Source of the DNA: Chloroflexota bacterium
GTDB taxonomy: Bacteria; Chloroflexota; Dehalococcoidia; Dehalococcoidales; UBA2162
Direction of reading: 5' to 3'
Assembly: GCA_016190895.1 (NCBI GenBank)
Contig: JACPPR010000096.1
Span: 1,625 to 65,624, forward strand
Length of the DNA stretch: 64,000 nt
The first letter of the stretch is position 1, and the number at the start of each line of letters is the position of its first letter. Position numbers and translations under genes: made by a program. The notes below the pieces were generated by a model. That model searched no databases. It saw only the letters and a program-made list of their open reading frames with translations, and was not told where the DNA came from. Positions 6,334-20,738 of this stretch are shown in pieces.

Positions 6334-6957
6334 CTATGTATGAAGTAATTCTGCTTCAGACAATAACCCTTGATTTTTGATAAAAGCGCTTACAGTCATT
6401 CTGTTTACGCCAAAGATTCTCGCAATCTCACATTTCGATACTTTTCGCTTTAAGAGGACCTGTATCACACTCTCTTGACCAGACAATTTGACCTTACCCG
6501 ATTTACTGCCTATCGGTCTGCCAAGTACAACACCTTCAGCACGTTTGCGAGCGAGTGCCTCTTTGGTTCTCTGACTGATGAGGTTTCGCTCTATTTCAGC
6601 CGATAATCCAAAAGCAAAGGCCAAAACCTTGCTCTGTATGTCCTCACCCAAGCGATAATTGTCCTTTATCGTCCAAACCTTGCATTCTTTACTCATGCAA
6701 AGGTTCAAGATTTCCATAATCATGAATAGATTTCGACCCAAACGTGACAACTCAGCGCAAATAATCAGATCGTCTTTTTGGACTTTCCTGAGTAATTTCC
6801 CAAGCTCGCGTTTGTCATAATTCTTTGTTCCGCTGATAGTTTCCTCAATCCAGCCATCGATTTGAATATTGTTTCGACTCACAAAATTCTCAATCTCAAA
6901 TCGCTGGTTCTCAACTGTTTGTTTCTCGCTGCTCACTCGGATGTATCCGTAATTCAT
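6334..6957 (-). CDS. small serine recombinase (resolvase/invertase, Hin/Gin-like)
   Basis: MNYGYIRVSSEKQ catalytic-Ser motif. C-terminal HTH (KCEIARIFGVNRMTV). RBS GGAGTGAGGAG before the ATG at 6957. The upstream part of the track ORF is repeat-derived. Confidence 0.85.
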   Translation of the reverse strand: MNYGYIRVSSEKQTVENQRFEIENFVSRNNIQIDGWIEETISGTKNYDKRELGKLLRKVQKDDLIICAELSRLGRNLFMIMEILNLCMSKECKVWTIKDNYRLGEDIQSKVLAFAFGLSAEIERNLISQRTKEALARKRAEGVVLGRPIGSKSGKVKLSGQESVIQVLLKRKVSKCEIARIFGVNRMTVSAFIKNQGLLSEAELLHT

Positions 6958-6991
6958 GGTCTCCTCACTCCTTTTCTTGTTAATATATAAC

Positions 6992-7082
6992 GAGCGTTTA
7001 TATTGAGCGAAACAGTGCGGCCAGCCGTTTTGATTCCAACGATAGTTGGACAATCCTTTCCCCTATTGAGCAAAGCATAAAG
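6992..7082. repeat. inverted repeat IR-A, left arm
   Basis: 91 bp. Reverse-complement of 8693..8783 with 2 mismatches (aligned by eye). Confidence 0.85.
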
Positions 7083-7196
7083 CGAAAAATTGAGGCTGTT
7101 GGCATTCCACTCAAAAAGTGGGATGTAAATATTTATCGAGGTGTTCTTACGGGCTATAACGACGCATTTATCATTTCTGGTAAGAAAAAAGACGAG

Positions 7197-7298
7197 CTTA
7201 TTGCTGCCGACCCAAAATCTGCTGAAATTATACGACCGATTCTACGTGGCAGGGACATCAAACGGTATCACTATGAGTTCGCGGATTTGTGGCTGATA
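7197..7298. repeat. inverted repeat IR-B, left arm
   Basis: About 100 bp, reverse-complement of 8477..8578. Perfect 53-bp core at 7209..7261. Confidence 0.85.
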
Positions 7299-7457
7299 GA
7301 TACTCACAACGGGATACGTGAGAAGGGGATACCACCTGTCAATGTGAATGGATACCCTGCTATCAAAGCACACCTGAATCAATTTTATGATGCGCTTGAG
7401 AAAAGGCTTGACAAGGGTGATACGCCCTACAATCTGCGCAGTTGTGCTTATACGGAC

Positions 7458-7480
7458 GATTTTTCCAAGCAGAAAATTGT
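7458..7480. repeat. inverted repeat IR-C, left arm
   Basis: The 23-bp sequence gatttttccaagcagaaaattgt is the perfect reverse-complement of 8265..8287. It encodes DDFSKQKIVW in both cassettes. Confidence 0.75.
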
Positions 7481-7882
7481 TTGGGCTGAACTAGCCAGGA
7501 CAGGGAATGCTTTTACAATTGATACGTTGCATTCCATTGTCTTAAACACATCCTATGTCCTTACATCATCCAGTGACGATATCAACGAATTGAAGTATCT
7601 ATCTGGAATGTTAAATAGCATGACGACGATGTTTTATATGAACTTAATATCTAGTAAATTCGATCAAACAGGATGGCGATGGTTAAAACAATTTGTAGAA
7701 CGGTTACCTATTCCCAAACTATCTTATAATGAGCAACAGCCATTCATCAAGATGGTTGATGAAATTCTCGATTTGAAACGAAAACACCTTGACACCACAA
7801 CTTTAGAAAGAGACTTGGACAAAATGATTTATAGATTGTTCGACTTTTCGGACGAAGAGATACAAGCAATAGAAGCGTGAGC

Positions 7883-10800
7883 TCACTTTCCCATTAAGAA
7901 AGTTCTCTCTTCTTCATTAAATCCATACAAGTCACAAATCATATCATCCAGCCTTTGTTCTTCAACAGTAGTCGGATTGTTCTGACTTTTTGCCTCTAAG
8001 ATCAGACTGACACATGAAATGAAAGGCGTCTTTTCAGCTTCACTCAATATGGGAACCGGAAGTTTCTCTATAAACATCGGCTTATATTCAAAGTACCCGC
8101 CATTCCTTGTGACGCCAAGGCCTCGAACATAAAAATCTGCTACTTTAGAATTCAGCACGGACAGCAAATATCTATCTCCAGGGACAATCATGGTGGCCGG
8201 AGCACTGATGAAGTATAGTTCTCCAACAAGTGCATATTGAGCACGCAGACAAAGGTTTCCCCAGACAATTTTCTGCTTGGAAAAATCGTCCCAATAGCTT
8301 ATGCTATCCTGTGTTTCAAACCATTTGTTATTCGTTTTTTTCCGCGCAGTAACTATTTGGCCACCCACAATATGCTTTTCCCCAGTCTGCCGAAGGCGTT
8401 CTATTCCAAATGAAAGAAGATATTCTTTTACCGATGGATATTGCTCAATATCGTACTTTAGGCTTGGAAAGGTAGCTATCAACCACAAATTCGCGAACTC
8501 ATAGTGATACCGCTTGATGTCCCTGCCACGTAGAATCGGTCGTATAATTTCAGCAGATTTTGGGTCTGCAGCAATAAGTTCATCTCGTTTTTTCCGATCA
8601 ATAATGAAAGCCTCGTTGAATCCAGTTTTTATCCCGTAGTTTATATGTACATCCCACTCCTTGAGTGGAACACCAGCAGTATCAATTTTTCCCTTTATGC
8701 TTTGCTCAATAGGGGAAAGGATTGCCCAACTATCGTTGGAATTAAAACGGCTGGCCGCACTGTTTCGCTCAATATAAACGCTCAAATTGTTCAAGCAATC
8801 ATCCTTGATCACGCACGCTTCGGTTTGACCCTTGTTCTTGCCCTTCTCAAAAATCATAATGCTGACATCCACCGTTGCTGAATCAAAGATTCTCTGCCCC
8901 GCAAAATCTATCAGACGCAGCGGATTGGTCTTGTGGGCAAAGAATTCCCGAATCGCCTTACCATAACCAGCGCGTATCCATTTGTTGGAAGTGATGAATG
9001 ATAAAACTCCGCTATCAGCAAGAAGGCCGTATCCCCTCTCATAAAAAAGGCAATAAATATCACCCATGCGCGCAAAGGATTGATACTGCATCTTTTCCAG
9101 ACGGTCAGCCTCTTGCTGCACAGATTGGAGTTGGATATAAGGCGGATTGGCTATCACCACATCAAATCCATCACTTACGCCAAACATCCACCCGGTGTCG
9201 AACCAATCACATCTTTTGTATGAGAAGGGGTCCCATTCGGCGAGCATGCGAGTCTGGGTCGTATCTTTGGATTCTATCTTCTTGGCAGCTCCCGTGAGAT
9301 CGGTCTTTACTGCGACTAGCATTTTTCTCGCGTGTTCGCTTAGTTGTGCCTGTACCGCTTTGAATTCGTGCTTGATAGCCTCTTTGTTTTCGCTATCGGC
9401 AAAATAACTCTTCCTGAGTGTCGCCAATTTGCTAATCAATTCTTTGTTTTCCATTAATCCCATACCAGTGATCTCGGGTAAGCCGATAAGCGTATTTGCC
9501 GCTACGAACTTGAATTCCAGATTGGGTAAAGGCTCGATGCCTCTGTTTCCCTCATTGTCCAGAACCATCTCATCCACAACGAGAGATAGGAAACACCGCA
9601 GTTTGGCAATCTCCACGGCGATGGGCTGGATGTCCACGCCATAGATAGAGTCACGGATAATCATCAGCTTGCGGATATACGCCCAGTTTTCCCGCTTGAC
9701 GTTCTTCTCCACAGTCTGGCGGACGATACTATCTAGCGTGCTCAGATACTGCTTTCTCCAGATTTCAAGCTTCGGGTCAACCCTCTCCAGCGCGAGCAAC
9801 ATCCGGTGCAGGATGCCCATCGGGAAAGCTCCCGAACCGCAGGCTGGATCTATAATTTTAATTTCCTTCAGAGCTGTAACTACGCTGTTCTTCTGCTCAT
9901 CTGTAAGCTCTACACCCTCATCTTCATACGAGAGCAAAGCAGCAAGGTTGTCCTCAGATATGGCGGTCTTCGTGAGCAGGTACTGCTTCAAAGACTGCTC
10001 CACCATATAATCAACAATGACGCGCGGGGTGTAATAGCTACCGGTTGCCTTGCGGGCGGTCTCGCCCGTCTCTGGCACCACCTCTGCCAGCAGGTTCTCA
10101 AAGATTCTGCCGAGCATTTCTGGGTCGACCGAGACTTCCGCGTCCACAGTGCTGTTTTCATCTATGGTGAAGTTATACTGTTCCAGAACGCTGAAGAAAT
10201 CCTTGAACCAGGTATCCGGTATTTTAAGAGCGTCAATCAGTGATCGCTTATAAAAATCGTTCTCGTGCGGCTCGAACAGCCCGCCGTTCAAGAACGGAAC
10301 TTTGTCTGCCTCCGGAACCGCAACTGGCTTCCGTTCTTTAACCGGCGTATTCATCAAGCCGAAGAAGAGCGGCTCCAGGACGGCATGGTAATAGCCGAGA
10401 TGCGTACTTGCTGCCGCAGTCGAAAGCGCGCTGTCAGAAATAAGCGGGATGCCCGCCGCTGACTTCTTATGCTTCAAGAACCAGCAAAATATCGCCCGGC
10501 CGATAAGCCTGACCGCGAATTCTTCATACGCCTTTTTGTCACCATCGTCGACTGACGACAATGTCAGCTCTTTTGGAAAGCCGCCTCTGCCGGTGAGGCG
10601 GTAGAAATAACGGGCAATTTCCTCATAGAATAGCTTATTGACCTTCTCCACGGAGAAAGCGTCTTTGACAATATCCAAACTGGCAAAGCTACATTCACCG
10701 ATTCTCTTTTTGAAGGTGTTGTTGGTCTGGCCGCTGCTGACAAAGTAAGTGAAGCGGCGGAAATTGCTCCAGACCGTGCGCGCGGCGTCCGGCGTGCCGT

Positions 10801-11143
10801 AAACCAGGCTCAGGCGGAAATTGCCGGACTGGTCGCTGAAGACGAACATGCCGGCGTCATACCGCATATATTGTTTGAGGATTTTCCTGGCCTTTTCGTA
10901 CTGGGCTTTCTTGCCGCTTCGCTCGGTTAAACCCCCGGCGATACTGGCCGTGACCACTACCAGCCTTTCGGCGGGACTGAAGTTGATTTCGCCAATTGCG
11001 TGGAAGCCTGAGAACTCGTCATCATCGTATTCAGAGAGGTCGTCTTCCGCTTCGGCATAGCAGTTAGTTGCATTCTGGAAGAATTCGTTCAAGTAGCCCT
11101 CTACGCCTTTATCGATGACTTTTTGCAGCAGTTTCTTGCTCAT
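7883..11143 (-). CDS. large N6-adenine DNA methyltransferase with C-terminal specificity region (Eco57I / PglX / DrmMI-like)
   Basis: 1086 aa. Motif I IIDPACGSGAFPMG and motif IV VVIANPPYIQ. The start overlaps the helicase stop (ATGA). Confidence 0.85.
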   Translation of the reverse strand: MSKKLLQKVIDKGVEGYLNEFFQNATNCYAEAEDDLSEYDDDEFSGFHAIGEINFSPAERLVVVTASIAGGLTERSGKKAQYEKARKILKQYMRYDAGMFVFSDQSGNFRLSLVYGTPDAARTVWSNFRRFTYFVSSGQTNNTFKKRIGECSFASLDIVKDAFSVEKVNKLFYEEIARYFYRLTGRGGFPKELTLSSVDDGDKKAYEEFAVRLIGRAIFCWFLKHKKSAAGIPLISDSALSTAAASTHLGYYHAVLEPLFFGLMNTPVKERKPVAVPEADKVPFLNGGLFEPHENDFYKRSLIDALKIPDTWFKDFFSVLEQYNFTIDENSTVDAEVSVDPEMLGRIFENLLAEVVPETGETARKATGSYYTPRVIVDYMVEQSLKQYLLTKTAISEDNLAALLSYEDEGVELTDEQKNSVVTALKEIKIIDPACGSGAFPMGILHRMLLALERVDPKLEIWRKQYLSTLDSIVRQTVEKNVKRENWAYIRKLMIIRDSIYGVDIQPIAVEIAKLRCFLSLVVDEMVLDNEGNRGIEPLPNLEFKFVAANTLIGLPEITGMGLMENKELISKLATLRKSYFADSENKEAIKHEFKAVQAQLSEHARKMLVAVKTDLTGAAKKIESKDTTQTRMLAEWDPFSYKRCDWFDTGWMFGVSDGFDVVIANPPYIQLQSVQQEADRLEKMQYQSFARMGDIYCLFYERGYGLLADSGVLSFITSNKWIRAGYGKAIREFFAHKTNPLRLIDFAGQRIFDSATVDVSIMIFEKGKNKGQTEACVIKDDCLNNLSVYIERNSAASRFNSNDSWAILSPIEQSIKGKIDTAGVPLKEWDVHINYGIKTGFNEAFIIDRKKRDELIAADPKSAEIIRPILRGRDIKRYHYEFANLWLIATFPSLKYDIEQYPSVKEYLLSFGIERLRQTGEKHIVGGQIVTARKKTNNKWFETQDSISYWDDFSKQKIVWGNLCLRAQYALVGELYFISAPATMIVPGDRYLLSVLNSKVADFYVRGLGVTRNGGYFEYKPMFIEKLPVPILSEAEKTPFISCVSLILEAKSQNNPTTVEEQRLDDMICDLYGFNEEERTFLMGK
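8265..8287. repeat. inverted repeat IR-C, right arm
   Basis: Partner of 7458..7480. Confidence 0.75.
8477..8578. repeat. inverted repeat IR-B, right arm (inside the MTase gene)
   Basis: Partner of 7197..7298. Perfect core at 8514..8566. Confidence 0.85.
8693..8783. repeat. inverted repeat IR-A, right arm (inside the MTase gene)
   Basis: Partner of 6992..7082. Confidence 0.85.
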
Positions 11144-16858: not shown

Positions 16859-16920
16859 GTATGGCTGCACGGTTTTCTAACTTTTCATCTTCTTCAAGTG
16901 TGATAGATATCAGAAGTTGC

Positions 16921-17000
16921 TGGAGCGCAGCGATCGATCGCTTCTTTTCAAAAAGGAGTTCGGGACTGTTCCGAGTAGCCCAACTGAGGGGATTCGAACC
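16921..17000. repeat. direct repeat copy 1 with tRNA 3'-end-like core
   Basis: Core 16957..16999 is agttcgggactgttccgagtagcccaactgaggggattcgaac. It matches 19939..19982 with 2 mismatches plus 1 indel. Weaker similarity extends about 35 bp to the left. Confidence 0.7.
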
Positions 17001-17219: not shown

Positions 17220-17247
17220 TTGACAATCACCATCACACGATTATAAT
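17220..17247 (+). promoter_or_regulatory. near-consensus sigma70-type promoter (TTGACA-N16-TATAAT)
   Basis: TTGACA at 17220..17225 and TATAAT at 17242..17247. It lies about 85 nt upstream of ATG 17333, which has a GAGGAGGG RBS. Confidence 0.55.
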
Positions 17248-17332
17248 GTAAGACAAAGAATAATTGTGTTGGAGGTAACCGGGAGGGGGCTGTTGCAAAA
17301 GGAAAAGCTGAGTCTTAACGAGGAGGGATTCC

Positions 17333-17782
17333 ATGGGCAGACATTTATCAGCAGAAATCGACAATAGCTTCGAGAGGAAACTGGTAGTCGAAAACGCTCT
17401 GGTCGCCGCTGCCAAAAGTGAGTTGGGTGAAAAACTAAGTGCGCGAGACCGAGCCAATTTGGAAGAGATAGTGAAGCTCTTCGAAGCTATCTTGCAAGGA
17501 GAACAGCAGTTACGGTCTCCGAGCTTGTCAGCTGTTTCTATTGACATGGCACAGGTTGCAAACAGGGTTGGGAGTATTTACAATACGAGATTCAAATTTT
17601 CCCAGTTTATCGCATTTGTGGCAGAGTTAAAGCAGATTGCTGAGGCAATGCTCGAAAACCGCAGAGTTATTGAAAGAAAGAGGCGCAATTTTGATGAGTT
17701 TCTCAATTTGCTCTCAGAATCAGAAGGCAAAGAAATAGAGCGGCTACAGTCTCTGCCGCTTGGGAGTTTCTCTGTGGCATGA
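17333..17782 (+). CDS. hypothetical alpha-helical protein
   Basis: 149 aa with a strong RBS. Its stop overlaps the next start (ATGA). Confidence 0.6.
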   Translation: MGRHLSAEIDNSFERKLVVENALVAAAKSELGEKLSARDRANLEEIVKLFEAILQGEQQLRSPSLSAVSIDMAQVANRVGSIYNTRFKFSQFIAFVAELKQIAEAMLENRRVIERKRRNFDEFLNLLSESEGKEIERLQSLPLGSFSVA

Positions 17783-19212
17783 GCACCCCGGCGGCGATTG
17801 CCCAGGACGCTTTGAATCTACTTGTTTCCCGCAGTAGAAGCGTTCGATTGTCGGCGGAGGCGCTCCTAGCAAAAGACTACCCTTCGGAAGTTCCTCGTAA
17901 TCTGATTCGCTGTGTGGTGTGCGCGACAAATCGGATTGACGCAGAAGTCTCCGAGATGTCATTCAGATTGAAGGCCAAACCTGAATATTCTGAGGTCACT
18001 CTCAAGGAAGCAAAGCTTCGTCATACTTTTCTCACTTATCTTCAAACGGTGATACTGTCTCTTGTTGATGGCGCCGAAACGGGTAAGGCTCCGGCTGAAT
18101 GGATCTGGCCAATCCAACGCATGGTAGAGGAGCTTTTCCCTGGGTGCCAAATTCTGGTCAGGTCGGTACACGAACTGAACTATTTCTTTGCTCCTCTTGG
18201 TGCGATGATCCAGAAGAAATTTGCGTCACTAGGTATGGACGACATTCTCAAGGATAACGGCCTTCTTGAGGAGATCTGGATGCTAGGGACATCTTCGTTC
18301 CCTCCTAGCGGAATTTTGACTCATTGTTTAATTGCCCATGAGATTGGCCATGGTATATATGAAACACGCAAACTGGGCGACCAAATTCTGAGGTCAGTTA
18401 AGATAGATGACCGTGCTGCTTCGAATATCGTTGATCTCATCGCTTCACAAATGGTGGAAGAGTCTTCGAGTCAAGAAACGGGTCCAAGGATTACGGGTAC
18501 ACGACTAGATACGCACATAGACAGAAGTTGGCTTGAATTGTCTGTAAATGCAAGACTCAAAGAAATCCTCTCCTGTTGGGCCGAAGAGTTTGCTTGCGAC
18601 GTGATAGGGTTAAGAATCCTTGGTCCCGCGTTCCTGTTATCGCAACTCTATTTCTTATTTCCGCTAGCTTCTATCGATGTGGGCGATGTTGAACACCCGA
18701 CCCCTCGGATGAGGCTGCGGTTATCAATCAACGCTCTACTTGGAACTGAAGAAGGACTTGGATACCGAATCGTTAAGTCACTGGATATTCAGAGCGTTTT
18801 ACAGAATTGGCAGAAAACTATCATGTCGTCAGAACCGAAGGCTAATGACCCGTATTTCGATGAGGCCTATAAAATGTTACGCCCAAGCCTGCGGGAGATA
18901 TTGAAGTTGTGCAAAAAGGAAACTAAGACATTAGCATACAGTCCGGACCGCTTAGACAAGGATGTGCCTAAACTTCTGACTCGTATTGGAGACGGTATTC
19001 CTCCTAATGAGCTTTGGGATGAGAAATCACAGTGTTTCCAGCCTGCTTATATGGCTTCAATCCTAAATGCAGGGTGGCTAGCTTTCGTTGCACCAGAGTT
19101 GCCCATGCCTTTTCGGAGTGTGACCAAGCAAGAGGCAGAAGGTAGGTTGCTTTCTTTGGTCGAGAAGGCAATGGAGTATTCTGAATTGGCACGGTTGAGC
19201 CAAAAGAAGTAA
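17779..19212 (+). CDS. HExxH zinc-metallopeptidase-like protein
   Basis: 477 aa. CLIAHEIGHGIYE (HExxH) and a downstream EEFACDVIGLRILGPAF helix. Translationally coupled to both neighbours. Confidence 0.65.
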   Translation: MSTPAAIAQDALNLLVSRSRSVRLSAEALLAKDYPSEVPRNLIRCVVCATNRIDAEVSEMSFRLKAKPEYSEVTLKEAKLRHTFLTYLQTVILSLVDGAETGKAPAEWIWPIQRMVEELFPGCQILVRSVHELNYFFAPLGAMIQKKFASLGMDDILKDNGLLEEIWMLGTSSFPPSGILTHCLIAHEIGHGIYETRKLGDQILRSVKIDDRAASNIVDLIASQMVEESSSQETGPRITGTRLDTHIDRSWLELSVNARLKEILSCWAEEFACDVIGLRILGPAFLLSQLYFLFPLASIDVGDVEHPTPRMRLRLSINALLGTEEGLGYRIVKSLDIQSVLQNWQKTIMSSEPKANDPYFDEAYKMLRPSLREILKLCKKETKTLAYSPDRLDKDVPKLLTRIGDGIPPNELWDEKSQCFQPAYMASILNAGWLAFVAPELPMPFRSVTKQEAEGRLLSLVEKAMEYSELARLSQKK

Positions 19213-19213
19213 T

Positions 19214-19861
19214 ATGTCAACACTTGCTGCTAGCGAGATCAGGCGAAGAATCCGGAGCACTCAAAATGACGCGCTAGTTATCACGCCTCTACTGAATGAA
19301 GCTGATCAGGTTCGTGGAGCATCTGTGGATGTTAGGTTAGGAAACTACTTTATCTCGTTCGTCCGTGGGAAGAAGGGCATTGTGGACCCCAAGAAAATGC
19401 AGGATATCTCCGACCGATACGAGACAAATGAGGAAATATACGTGCCTTATGGTAGGAATTTTATTTTGCATCCCCGCCAATTTGTCGTAGGGGGTACTCT
19501 TGAATACTTCGGCTTGCCGAAAGATCTAGCAGCTTATGTGGTTGGTCGATCATCTTGGGGTAGACTGGGACTGGTAGTTGCTACCGCGATAGGAGTTCAT
19601 CCTGGCTATCGGGGCATTATCACATTGGAACTGACCAATCTTGGTGAGGTGCCAATATTACTGTATCCGGGTTGGTCTATCGCTCAAGTGTTTTTCCAAA
19701 CTATCATAGCAGATGCGAATTGTCCCGTGGAGGGATGTGATGTGGACAATTCAAGGTACAGCCTTGCGGTCAAACCGGAGATGAGTCGTCTGGTAGAGCC
19801 GGAAGACTTAAGGCATTTGGAAGAAGCGATCAACAAGCGGGGCGGCTTAAGGCAGACGTAA
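19214..19861 (+). CDS. dCTP deaminase (Dcd/dUTPase-fold) family protein
   Basis: ASVDVRLGN, GRSSWGRLGL and VHPGYRGIITLELTNLG follow Dcd-family motifs. It starts 2 nt after the previous stop. Confidence 0.75.
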   Translation: MSTLAASEIRRRIRSTQNDALVITPLLNEADQVRGASVDVRLGNYFISFVRGKKGIVDPKKMQDISDRYETNEEIYVPYGRNFILHPRQFVVGGTLEYFGLPKDLAAYVVGRSSWGRLGLVVATAIGVHPGYRGIITLELTNLGEVPILLYPGWSIAQVFFQTIIADANCPVEGCDVDNSRYSLAVKPEMSRLVEPEDLRHLEEAINKRGGLRQT

Positions 19862-19903
19862 GCGAACTGTTATATTCAAGTGAGACATGATACCAGTAGT
19901 TGT

Positions 19904-19982
19904 TGGAGCAGGGGTACCAATCCTTTTTCTCAAACAGAAGTTCGGGAACTGTTCCGAGTGGCCCAGCTGAGGGGATTCGAAC
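19904..19982. repeat. direct repeat copy 2 with tRNA 3'-end-like core
   Basis: Partner of 16921..17000. The minus strand reads ...GGAGTTCGAATCCCCTCAGCTGGGCCA. Confidence 0.7.
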
Positions 19983-20610: not shown

Positions 20611-20690
20611 AATTGTAGGGGGACCGGAGAATCTACGTCCCCCTCCGTTCCCTCTGGATTCCCCGCCTGAAGCGGGGAATGACACATAGG
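20611..20690. repeat. GC-rich intergenic hairpin cluster
   Basis: Hairpins GGGGGAC..GTCCCCC (20618..20643) and ATTCCCCGC-ctgaa-GCGGGGAAT (20658..20680), followed by tgacac. Confidence 0.6.
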
Positions 20691-20738
20691 AGACTTGCTA
20701 TTTTCGGGGTAATGCCACAATCACAATAATGAAGTTGG

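Follow-up and report, generated by a model that had tools for sequence, protein, structure and literature searches.

A mobile three-gene module linking a Dcd-family protein to an HExxH protein as a candidate anti-phage defence system

The stretch of DNA considered here (the window; 64,000 nucleotides (nt) of contig JACPPR010000096.1 from the Chloroflexota assembly GCA_016190895.1) contains an operon of three genes that recur together in bacteria and archaea and are discussed below as a candidate defence system. They encode a small helical protein (gene 1), a protein with an HExxH motif (gene 2) and a member of the Dcd family of deoxycytidine triphosphate (dCTP) deaminases (gene 3; Table 1). 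Genes 1 and 2 are joined by an ATGA overlap (17779-17782), and 1 nt separates the TAA stop codon of gene 2 (19210-19212) from the ATG start codon of gene 3 (19214). An earlier reading of this DNA, made from the sequence only, had described three translationally coupled genes behind a near-consensus promoter. The coordinates, lengths and junctions of the genes are all reproduced, and the motifs quoted for gene 2 (HEIGH and EEFACD...GPAF) and gene 3 (SVDVRLGN, GRSSWGRLGL and GIITLELTN) have all been located.

The promoter was likewise borne out. Taken alone, a match to the consensus carries little weight, as five such sites are observed against 3.5 expected. The -35/-10 pair is kept, however, in four of five related contigs (L010, L011, L013 and L001) and is weaker in the fifth (L009), and the upstream flanks of the contigs with the conserved promoter are otherwise unrelated. 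DNA homology with the nearest relatives is confined to the region from 17239/17321 through 19836. Because the promoter is kept in relatives while the DNA farther upstream differs, it is part of the conserved unit.

Table 1. Features of the three-gene operon and its flanks; positions refer to the window.
Feature	Position	Strand	Remarks
Gene 1	17333-17782	+	Open reading frame (ORF) of 149 amino acids (aa)
Gene 2	17779-19212	+	ORF of 477 aa
Gene 3	19214-19861	+	ORF of 215 aa
Promoter TTGACA-N16-TATAAT, sigma-70-type	17220-17247	+	12/12 consensus match; 5' edge of the conserved mobile unit
Ribosome-binding site GGAGG	17322-17326	+	6 nt ahead of the gene 1 start codon; read from the sequence
HEIGH, gene 2 residues 187-191	18337-18351	+	Putative zinc-binding/catalytic HExxH; H187, E188 and H191 in 86/86
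E270-F-A-C-D274 of gene 2	18586-18600	+	Putative glutamate helix E-x-x-[S/A/C]-D; putative third metal ligand and supporting Asp
GRSSWGRLGL, gene 3 residues 111-120	19544-19573	+	Holds S113 and R117, equivalents of E. coli Dcd Ser111 and Arg115
Glu139 codon of gene 3	19628-19630	+	Equivalent of E. coli Dcd Glu138; 152/152
Left flanking direct repeat	16893-16999		Minus-strand end resembles the 3' part of a tRNA: TTCGAAT-CCCCT-CAGTTGG-G-CTA
Right flanking direct repeat	19875-19982		Minus strand TTCGAAT-CCCCT-CAGCTGG-G-CCA; located where the low-GC island ends on its right side

The trio moves and diversifies as one unit. A word-indexed search yielded nine relatives of gene 2, and the order of small ORF, gene 2-like gene and DCD-domain ORF is found in 9/9 of the respective contigs. 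In a survey of one genome per GTDB species, which resulted in 36 loci, a Dcd-like gene lies directly downstream of gene 2 in 32 loci, and the remaining four are truncated where their contigs stop. An iterative hidden Markov model (HMM) detected a homologue of gene 1, in the form of an ORF of 136-180 aa, immediately before gene 2 in 41 of 44 loci. Mean pairwise identity is highest for gene 3 (40%), followed by gene 2 (23%) and gene 1 (18%), and the pairwise-identity matrices of the three proteins from 26 loci correlate with Pearson coefficients of 0.88-0.94, values that were reached in 0 of 2,000 Mantel permutations. In addition, natural fusions with gene 2 as the N-terminal and the Dcd-like protein as the C-terminal part occur in at least nine proteins, including those from three Pyrinomonadaceae genomes. 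This repeated fusion shows that genes 2 and 3 act as a physical unit. Co-occurrence of the trio in other genomes had been set beforehand as a test, and the trio is present in every complete related locus examined.

Gene 3 encodes a bona fide member of the Dcd family which, judged from its residues, keeps the catalytic core and belongs to a distinct mobile subfamily. The protein matches the Pfam family DCD (PF22769) with an E-value of 8e-36 and 123.8 bits (cut-off 27) and the NCBIfam equivalog TIGR02274 (dCTP_deam) with 134.1 bits at a cut-off of 92.8. Its closest solved structures are the Dcd proteins from Mycobacterium tuberculosis and Escherichia coli (E = 1e-24 to 1e-22). Residue conservation was assessed by aligning 152 members of the clade with E. 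coli Dcd. S113, R117 and E139, which correspond to Ser111, Arg115 and Glu138 and thus to the catalytic residues of the E. coli enzyme, are invariant in 152/152 members. The equivalent of E. coli His121 is deleted in 152/152, and the position of Asp128 is occupied by His in 100 members, by Asn in 15, by Ser in 14 and by Asp in only 8. The claim of the sequence-only reading that gene 3 has all landmarks of the Dcd family therefore stands for the Ser/Arg/Glu residues but is too strong as a whole, because His121 is deleted and Asp128 altered across the clade. The clade has a signature of its own, GRSSWGRLGL..ATA..[H]PG[Y/F].G..TLEL.N, which is distinct from that of canonical Dcd, and the part GRSSWGRLGL..ATA is common to all 120 closest database relatives with a readable motif.

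Those of the closest relatives of gene 3 that were looked up again sit in trios, with one exception in Candidatus Hydrogenisulfobacillus filiaventi (LR778114.1; L053:7238-9745), where a Dcd-like gene of the same clade is accompanied by other partners. An Ala-rich protein of 258 aa is encoded upstream and a polytopic membrane protein of 376 aa downstream, and neither matches the profiles of gene 1 and gene 2; on visual comparison, the 258-aa protein has a C-terminus similar to the C-terminal motif of gene 2. A second Dcd-like ORF was not found in the window. In a related lineage (L010-L012), whose gene 2 protein is 76% identical to that of the window and whose genes 1 and 2 are intact, the Dcd gene carries a frameshift just ahead of the GRSSWGR motif that divides it in two (L010:2505-3163 and L011:2256-2914). 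The third contig of this lineage ends after the first piece of the Dcd gene (L012:2182-2547), so that the split is visible only in L010 and L011, and all three contigs may stem from one population.

Gene 2 encodes a helical protein in which a gluzincin-like core is preceded by a helical N-terminal domain and followed by a C-terminal domain with the conserved motifs PPNE and N-x-G-W (N430-x-G-W), and its AlphaFold2 (AF2) model reaches a mean predicted local distance difference test (pLDDT) score of 87 and a predicted template modelling (pTM) score of 0.85. An exhaustive HMM search yielded 2,645 representatives at 50% clustering with E < 1e-3, 249 of which lie below 1e-30. Among 86 diverse relatives, H187, E188, H191, E270, D274, G282, P307 and R312 are invariant, and position 273 is held by a small residue in 85/86 (Ser in 36, Ala in 25 and Cys in 24). 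The segment EEFACD...GPAF comprises residues 269-285, and the spacing between HExxH and the downstream Glu amounts to 55-94 residues in the family. In the AF2 model, three strands (124-130, 136-139 and 166-172) precede the HExxH helix (178-196), and E270 and D274 are placed on a long helix (249-281). The motif E-x-x-[S/A]-D is the thermolysin and neprilysin version of the glutamate-helix motif. As criteria for gluzincins, a beta-sheet, an active-site helix and a glutamate helix with a small residue at ligand +3 have been described (PMC6414381, PMC9002140). Gene 2 thus carries a strictly conserved, putative metal site that, on the basis of motif and model, resembles that of gluzincins.

Searches against known families and folds returned no counterpart. 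Gene 2 has no match in Pfam, NCBIfam or PADLOC, and the 86 diverse relatives gave only noise against Pfam and PADLOC, including one match to an M48 family of Pfam at E = 0.0015. A profile of these relatives retrieved just designed helical proteins from the PDB sequences (E > 0.04), and Foldseek searches of the PDB and BFVD with the full and trimmed models of gene 2 gave nothing at E <= 0.001. The trimmed core model folded poorly (pLDDT 63), and chains of Ste24/ZMPSTE24 appeared at non-significant E-values of 5-8. The earlier designation of gene 2 as zinc-peptidase-like is accordingly upheld at the level of the motifs, with HExxH, E270 and D274 present in 86/86; no significant match to a peptidase family or fold was obtained.

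A variant of gene 2 is encoded on the Halobacterium salinarum plasmid pKBTZ03_58 (L059:5160-6711), where a protein of 340 aa consists of the catalytic core only and contains the motifs HEIAH ... WFEELFCD ... GPSY ... HPPPALR. It is preceded by a helical protein of 150 aa, and the pair lies downstream of genes for a PD-(D/E)XK nuclease and a UvrD helicase; no Dcd gene is present within 6 kb. Because this core-only protein has no Dcd gene nearby, the C-terminal domain with PPNE and N430-x-G-W is suggested to be the part of gene 2 that couples to the Dcd enzyme.

The protein encoded by gene 1 is helical, evolves fast and is without a catalytic motif. Apart from one Gly and a C-terminal Phe-Phe, only a few hydrophobic positions are conserved. 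No family in Pfam, NCBIfam or PADLOC is matched, with a TacA-like score remaining below threshold (E = 0.046), and a scan with the family library found no helix-turn-helix (HTH) domain. According to hhalign, gene 1 and gene 2 are unrelated. Gene 1 may act as a regulator, antitoxin or sensor partner.

The trio spans about a dozen bacterial phyla as well as archaeal metagenome-assembled genomes (MAGs). Its hosts include Chloroflexota/Dehalococcoidia, Acidobacteriota, Nitrospirota, Planctomycetota (Scalindua), Zixibacteria, Aminicenantes, Armatimonadota, Actinomycetota, and Alpha-, Beta- and Gammaproteobacteria, and the archaeal carriers are a Methanobacteriaceae MAG and a Nitrosotenuis MAG. The Methanobacteriaceae copy shares 64, 76 and 67% identity (genes 2, 3 and 1, respectively) with a copy from Acidobacteria, which points to a recent transfer between Archaea and Bacteria, although the archaeal contig, at only 2.9 kb, calls for caution.

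Several copies reside in mobile contexts. On a conjugative plasmid of Bradyrhizobium quebecense (L051, NZ_CP088023.1), the trio follows a MerR regulator, and patatin-like genes, PLD-like genes and transposases are found close by. RefSeq names this plasmid-borne Dcd-like gene (L051:8885-9598) 'dcd' and its product 'dCTP deaminase'. The thaumarchaeal Nitrosotenuis copy is located between IS110 and IS66 transposases. In locus L057, the trio is found between a phage integrase and genes of a bacteriophage exclusion (BREX) system (BrxL, PglZ and PglX), and a separate canonical long-form DCD gene is encoded 7.5 kb away. The trio of L058 is carried by a P2-like prophage, in which it stands together with a HigBA-like pair directly beside the portal gene gpQ. 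This HigB/HigA-like toxin-antitoxin (TA) pair, which was read from translations, occupies the space between the trio and the portal gene (L058:8760-9442). A cos-proximal hotspot of anti-phage genes has been described for P2-like phages by Rousset et al. (PMC9122126), and the site of the trio in the L058 prophage is this hotspot. The prophage is also the one contig among 2.9 million in which the trio was found in a scan of IMG/VR with a narrow alignment. Gene 2 has no match in 50,697 phage genomes, and the DNA of the L058 trio has none in complete genomes of E. coli.

The immediate neighbours of the trio are heterogeneous; regulators of the XRE and MerR types and DDE transposases occur, as do Hsp70, Ddl and PolA. 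Known defence genes, namely Cas3, Cas8e and Cas7e (CRISPR I-E), MADS, Borvo, restriction-modification (R-M) and PDC candidates, lie no farther than about 10 kb away in a sizeable minority of the loci. The trio is a horizontally mobile, self-contained module with its own strong promoter.

In the window, the cassette is located at the right end of a stretch of low guanine-plus-cytosine (GC) content that extends from about 5.5 to 20.5 kb. This stretch also holds genes for a serine recombinase, a Type IIG R-M enzyme, an HKD+SNF2 helicase and a UvrD/GajB-like helicase, and the R-M enzyme and the two helicases are all encoded upstream of the trio. The setting in a defence island proposed in the sequence-only reading is thereby confirmed, as is the description of the cassette as flanked by repeats. 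It is bracketed by direct repeats of 109 nt with 81% identity between the copies, and their 34-nt core had 0 matches in 100 shuffles. The repeats contain parts that resemble a tRNA, namely the T-loop TTCGAAT, CCCCT, a 7-nt acceptor strand and G, followed by CCA in the right copy, and their identity ends at the T-loop, as at the attachment (att) sites of integrases. Scans for tRNA, transfer-messenger RNA (tmRNA) and Rfam families gave no match in the repeats, no intact tRNA or tmRNA is present within the window, and the right flank does not fold better than shuffled sequence; the putative remnant of a tRNA 3' end is therefore a matter of sequence pattern only.

Read depth was taken from the source groundwater metagenome, in which the depth of the repeats is 8-10 times that of their flanks. 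Together, repeats and depth suggest that modules of the island were integrated serially at a single att site. Metagenome contigs aligned across the cassette show no empty-site joints, an absence that is uninformative as only contigs were available.

Two further observations concern other parts of the window. Positions 6334-11143 of the window appear to encode a phase-variable Type IIG R-M enzyme. The serine recombinase gene (6334-7053, minus strand) adjoins a silent TaqI_C-like target-recognition fragment (7287-7880, plus strand), which has the opposite orientation to the full enzyme (7883-11143, minus strand) and is 29% identical to its residues 886-1079. These elements are linked by long inverted repeats at 6992-7132/8643-8783 (141 nt, 92%), 7149-7303/8472-8626 (155 nt, 86%) and 7449-7485/8260-8296 (37 nt, 92%), an arrangement that looks as if an inversion would exchange the specificity domain. 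Between a cupin and a ferredoxin gene, an element at 20622-20713 with the hairpin TTCCCCGC-ctgaa-GCGGGGAA shows about 45 times the surrounding depth in 4/4 metagenome runs and is probably a very abundant repeat similar to repetitive extragenic palindromic (REP) elements or to miniature inverted-repeat transposable elements (MITEs).

Based on the computational evidence, the locus is read as one copy of a widespread three-gene module that would serve as an anti-phage defence system, acting by abortive infection or on the nucleotide pool, and we put the probability of this reading slightly above one half (about 0.55). In the mechanism considered, a trimer of the Dcd-fold protein would be the effector, which, once released or activated, would convert dCTP into deoxyuridine triphosphate (dUTP) or monophosphate (dUMP). 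The loss of dCTP would starve phage DNA synthesis, and deoxyuridine nucleotides would rise. Gene 2, aided by the fast-evolving protein of gene 1, would restrain the Dcd enzyme and sense the infection, and its metalloprotease-like site may cut gene 1, or else a lid or linker of the Dcd enzyme, and thereby switch the latter on. In canonical Dcd, the His121 loop takes part in the switch between the active and inactive states, as known from mutational work on the E. coli enzyme; its loss in the clade may free the enzyme from feedback by deoxythymidine triphosphate (dTTP). A further-reaching proposal is that the trio represents a new class of immune system, distributed by horizontal transfer across Bacteria and Archaea, in which a Dcd enzyme lacking the feedback loop is tethered to a gluzincin-like sensor or protease and a fast-evolving helical partner and is unleashed upon infection, destroying dCTP and loading the cell with deoxyuridine nucleotides, so that depletion of dCTP would have arisen convergently on a second fold; this we regard as tentative and as somewhat more likely to be wrong than right.

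Several points weigh against the defence reading. No PADLOC match was obtained for any of the three proteins (PADLOC-DB 2.0, 2023), and gene 2 has no significant match to any peptidase family or fold. The association with defence genes is seen in a substantial minority of loci only, and housekeeping genes, Hsp70, Ddl and PolA among them, account for many of the neighbours. The altered loop of the Dcd protein could equally mean a changed substrate or lost deamination, and the fused variants do not obviously need a model in which an inhibitor is cleaved. Moreover, some taxonomic assignments are uncertain, as a number of loci come from short metagenomic contigs or from MAG bins (for example the 2.9-kb archaeal contig L022).

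The mobility of the trio can also be viewed from the side of the elements that carry it. In a TA or addiction module stabilising these elements, the Dcd enzyme would be the toxin, gene 1 its labile antitoxin and gene 2 the protease or chaperone of the latter. Copies on plasmids, in a prophage and beside insertion sequence (IS) elements, a HigBA-like pair adjoining the trio in L058 and the fast evolution of the small first gene are in line with such a function, and the frameshift of the Dcd gene ahead of the catalytic motif in the L010-L012 lineage is what would be expected of a costly toxin. However, gene 1 gives just a sub-threshold TacA-like match (E = 0.046), and the P2 cos-proximal hotspot and the BREX, R-M and CRISPR (clustered regularly interspaced short palindromic repeats) neighbours suit defence better, so that addiction as the function is considered unlikely; the two are not exclusive, as many TA modules work as abortive-infection systems. 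Mobile elements might, on the other hand, use the trio as a metabolic or DNA-modification accessory, which would supply dUMP or dUTP or deaminate modified cytosine nucleotides to serve their own replication or anti-restriction, and gene 2 would be a zinc hydrolase of this pathway without proteolytic function. The metabolic origin of the Dcd family, the fact that HExxH proteins are not always peptidases and the carriage by mobile elements would fit, but the trio is absent from 50,697 phage genomes, its single occurrence among 2.9 million IMG/VR contigs lies in a moron hotspot and not among replication genes, and no conserved adjoining genes for thymidylate synthase, dUTPase or DNA modification are found in the neighbourhoods examined. 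Such an accessory function is therefore rated as very improbable.

Two further alternatives turn on the part played by the Dcd protein itself. The roles within the system could be reversed, with the Dcd fold as a sensor of, for example, modified dCTP or dUTP made by the phage, and the gluzincin-like protein as an effector protease that, similar to Lit, cuts an essential protein of the host or phage. The metal site of gene 2 is conserved as strictly as the Dcd site, the gene 2 core occurs without any Dcd gene on the Halobacterium plasmid, and positions of the nucleotide pocket (His121 and Asp128) are altered. Yet sensor domains usually lose their catalytic residues, whereas Ser/Arg/Glu are invariant in 152/152 members here, and gene 3 is the most conserved of the three (40%, with gene 2 at 23% and gene 1 at 18%), which is the usual pattern of an effector enzyme; we regard the reversal as improbable. 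The possibility that gene 3 is an ordinary housekeeping dCTP deaminase with two accessory genes draws on its score above the TIGR02274 equivalog cut-off and on the RefSeq label 'dcd'. It is effectively excluded by the patchy distribution across the domains of life, the heterogeneous neighbourhoods with plasmid, prophage and IS contexts, the position of the window copy inside a low-GC island, the clade signature differing from that of canonical Dcd, the natural frameshift of the gene in one lineage and the separate canonical DCD gene 7.5 kb away in L057. That gene 3 might be the sole housekeeping dcd of its genome in a conserved context had been named at the outset as a finding that would count against a defensive role; the plasmid, prophage and IS loci and the second, canonical DCD gene in L057 show otherwise.

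If the defence reading is validated, the trio would constitute a second, structurally unrelated route to immunity by dCTP depletion. Two new protein families are defined, that of gene 2, which is unannotated and comprises about 2,600 clusters at 50% identity, and that of gene 1. The locus also represents a trap for annotation, because pipelines label the proposed effector as 'dCTP deaminase (dcd)', as RefSeq does for the copy on the Bradyrhizobium plasmid, and metabolic reconstructions from MAGs may thus take a mobile and probably toxic effector for a housekeeping enzyme. The repeated fusions of gene 2 with the Dcd-like protein offer a tractable handle for determining structures that would reveal how a nucleotide-pool enzyme is silenced.

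Compared with canonical Dcd proteins, such as those from E. coli (PDB 1XS1) and M. tuberculosis (Dcd:dut, 2QXX/4A6A) and the DCD-DUT of Methanocaldococcus jannaschii (1OGH), gene 3 belongs to the same family and keeps the equivalents of Ser/Arg/Glu. In contrast to these, its clade has its own signature, is without His121 and has mostly changed Asp128, and the gene is operonic with or fused to the gene 2 family and is mobile instead of housekeeping. With gluzincins such as M48/M56, neprilysin (M13) and thermolysin (M4), gene 2 shares the HExxH motif and the E-x-x-[S/A/C]-D motif 55-94 residues downstream on a long helix, and its AF2 model likewise has three beta-strands ahead of the active-site helix. 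It differs from them in that the core is set between large helical domains and has no significant family or fold match, and its role as a peptidase is putative.

The arrangement of a small first gene and an HExxH protein, here upstream of an effector, is also known from ImmA/ImmR, IrrE/DdrO and CapP/CapH (bioRxiv 10.1101/2022.04.27.489752), and by analogy a cleavage switch triggered by damage or infection is plausible for the trio. Unlike the ImmA/IrrE-type modules, however, gene 1 is without an HTH domain, gene 2 is without a match to Peptidase_M78, and several lineages have gene 2 and the effector as one fused protein. This fusion points to post-translational and not transcriptional control.

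Searches of PADLOC-DB 2.0 and of the searchable literature turned up no description of a Dcd-fold or HExxH-linked defence system. The depletion of dCTP by a zinc deaminase unrelated to Dcd, in contrast, is an established defence. The defensive dCTP deaminase of Tal et al. and AvcD (of AvcID) have a zinc-dependent cytidine-deaminase fold and an N-terminal kinase-like domain, in agreement with the earlier statement that the known dCTP-targeting defence enzymes are of another fold. The predicted outcome, removal of dCTP and a block of phage DNA synthesis, would be shared with these systems. Gene 3 differs from them by its dUTPase-like Dcd fold, none of the PADLOC models matches it, and genes 1 and 2 are without counterpart there. 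Thus, defence by dCTP depletion is already known, and what the sequences of the trio would add to it is a different effector fold together with two new partner families.

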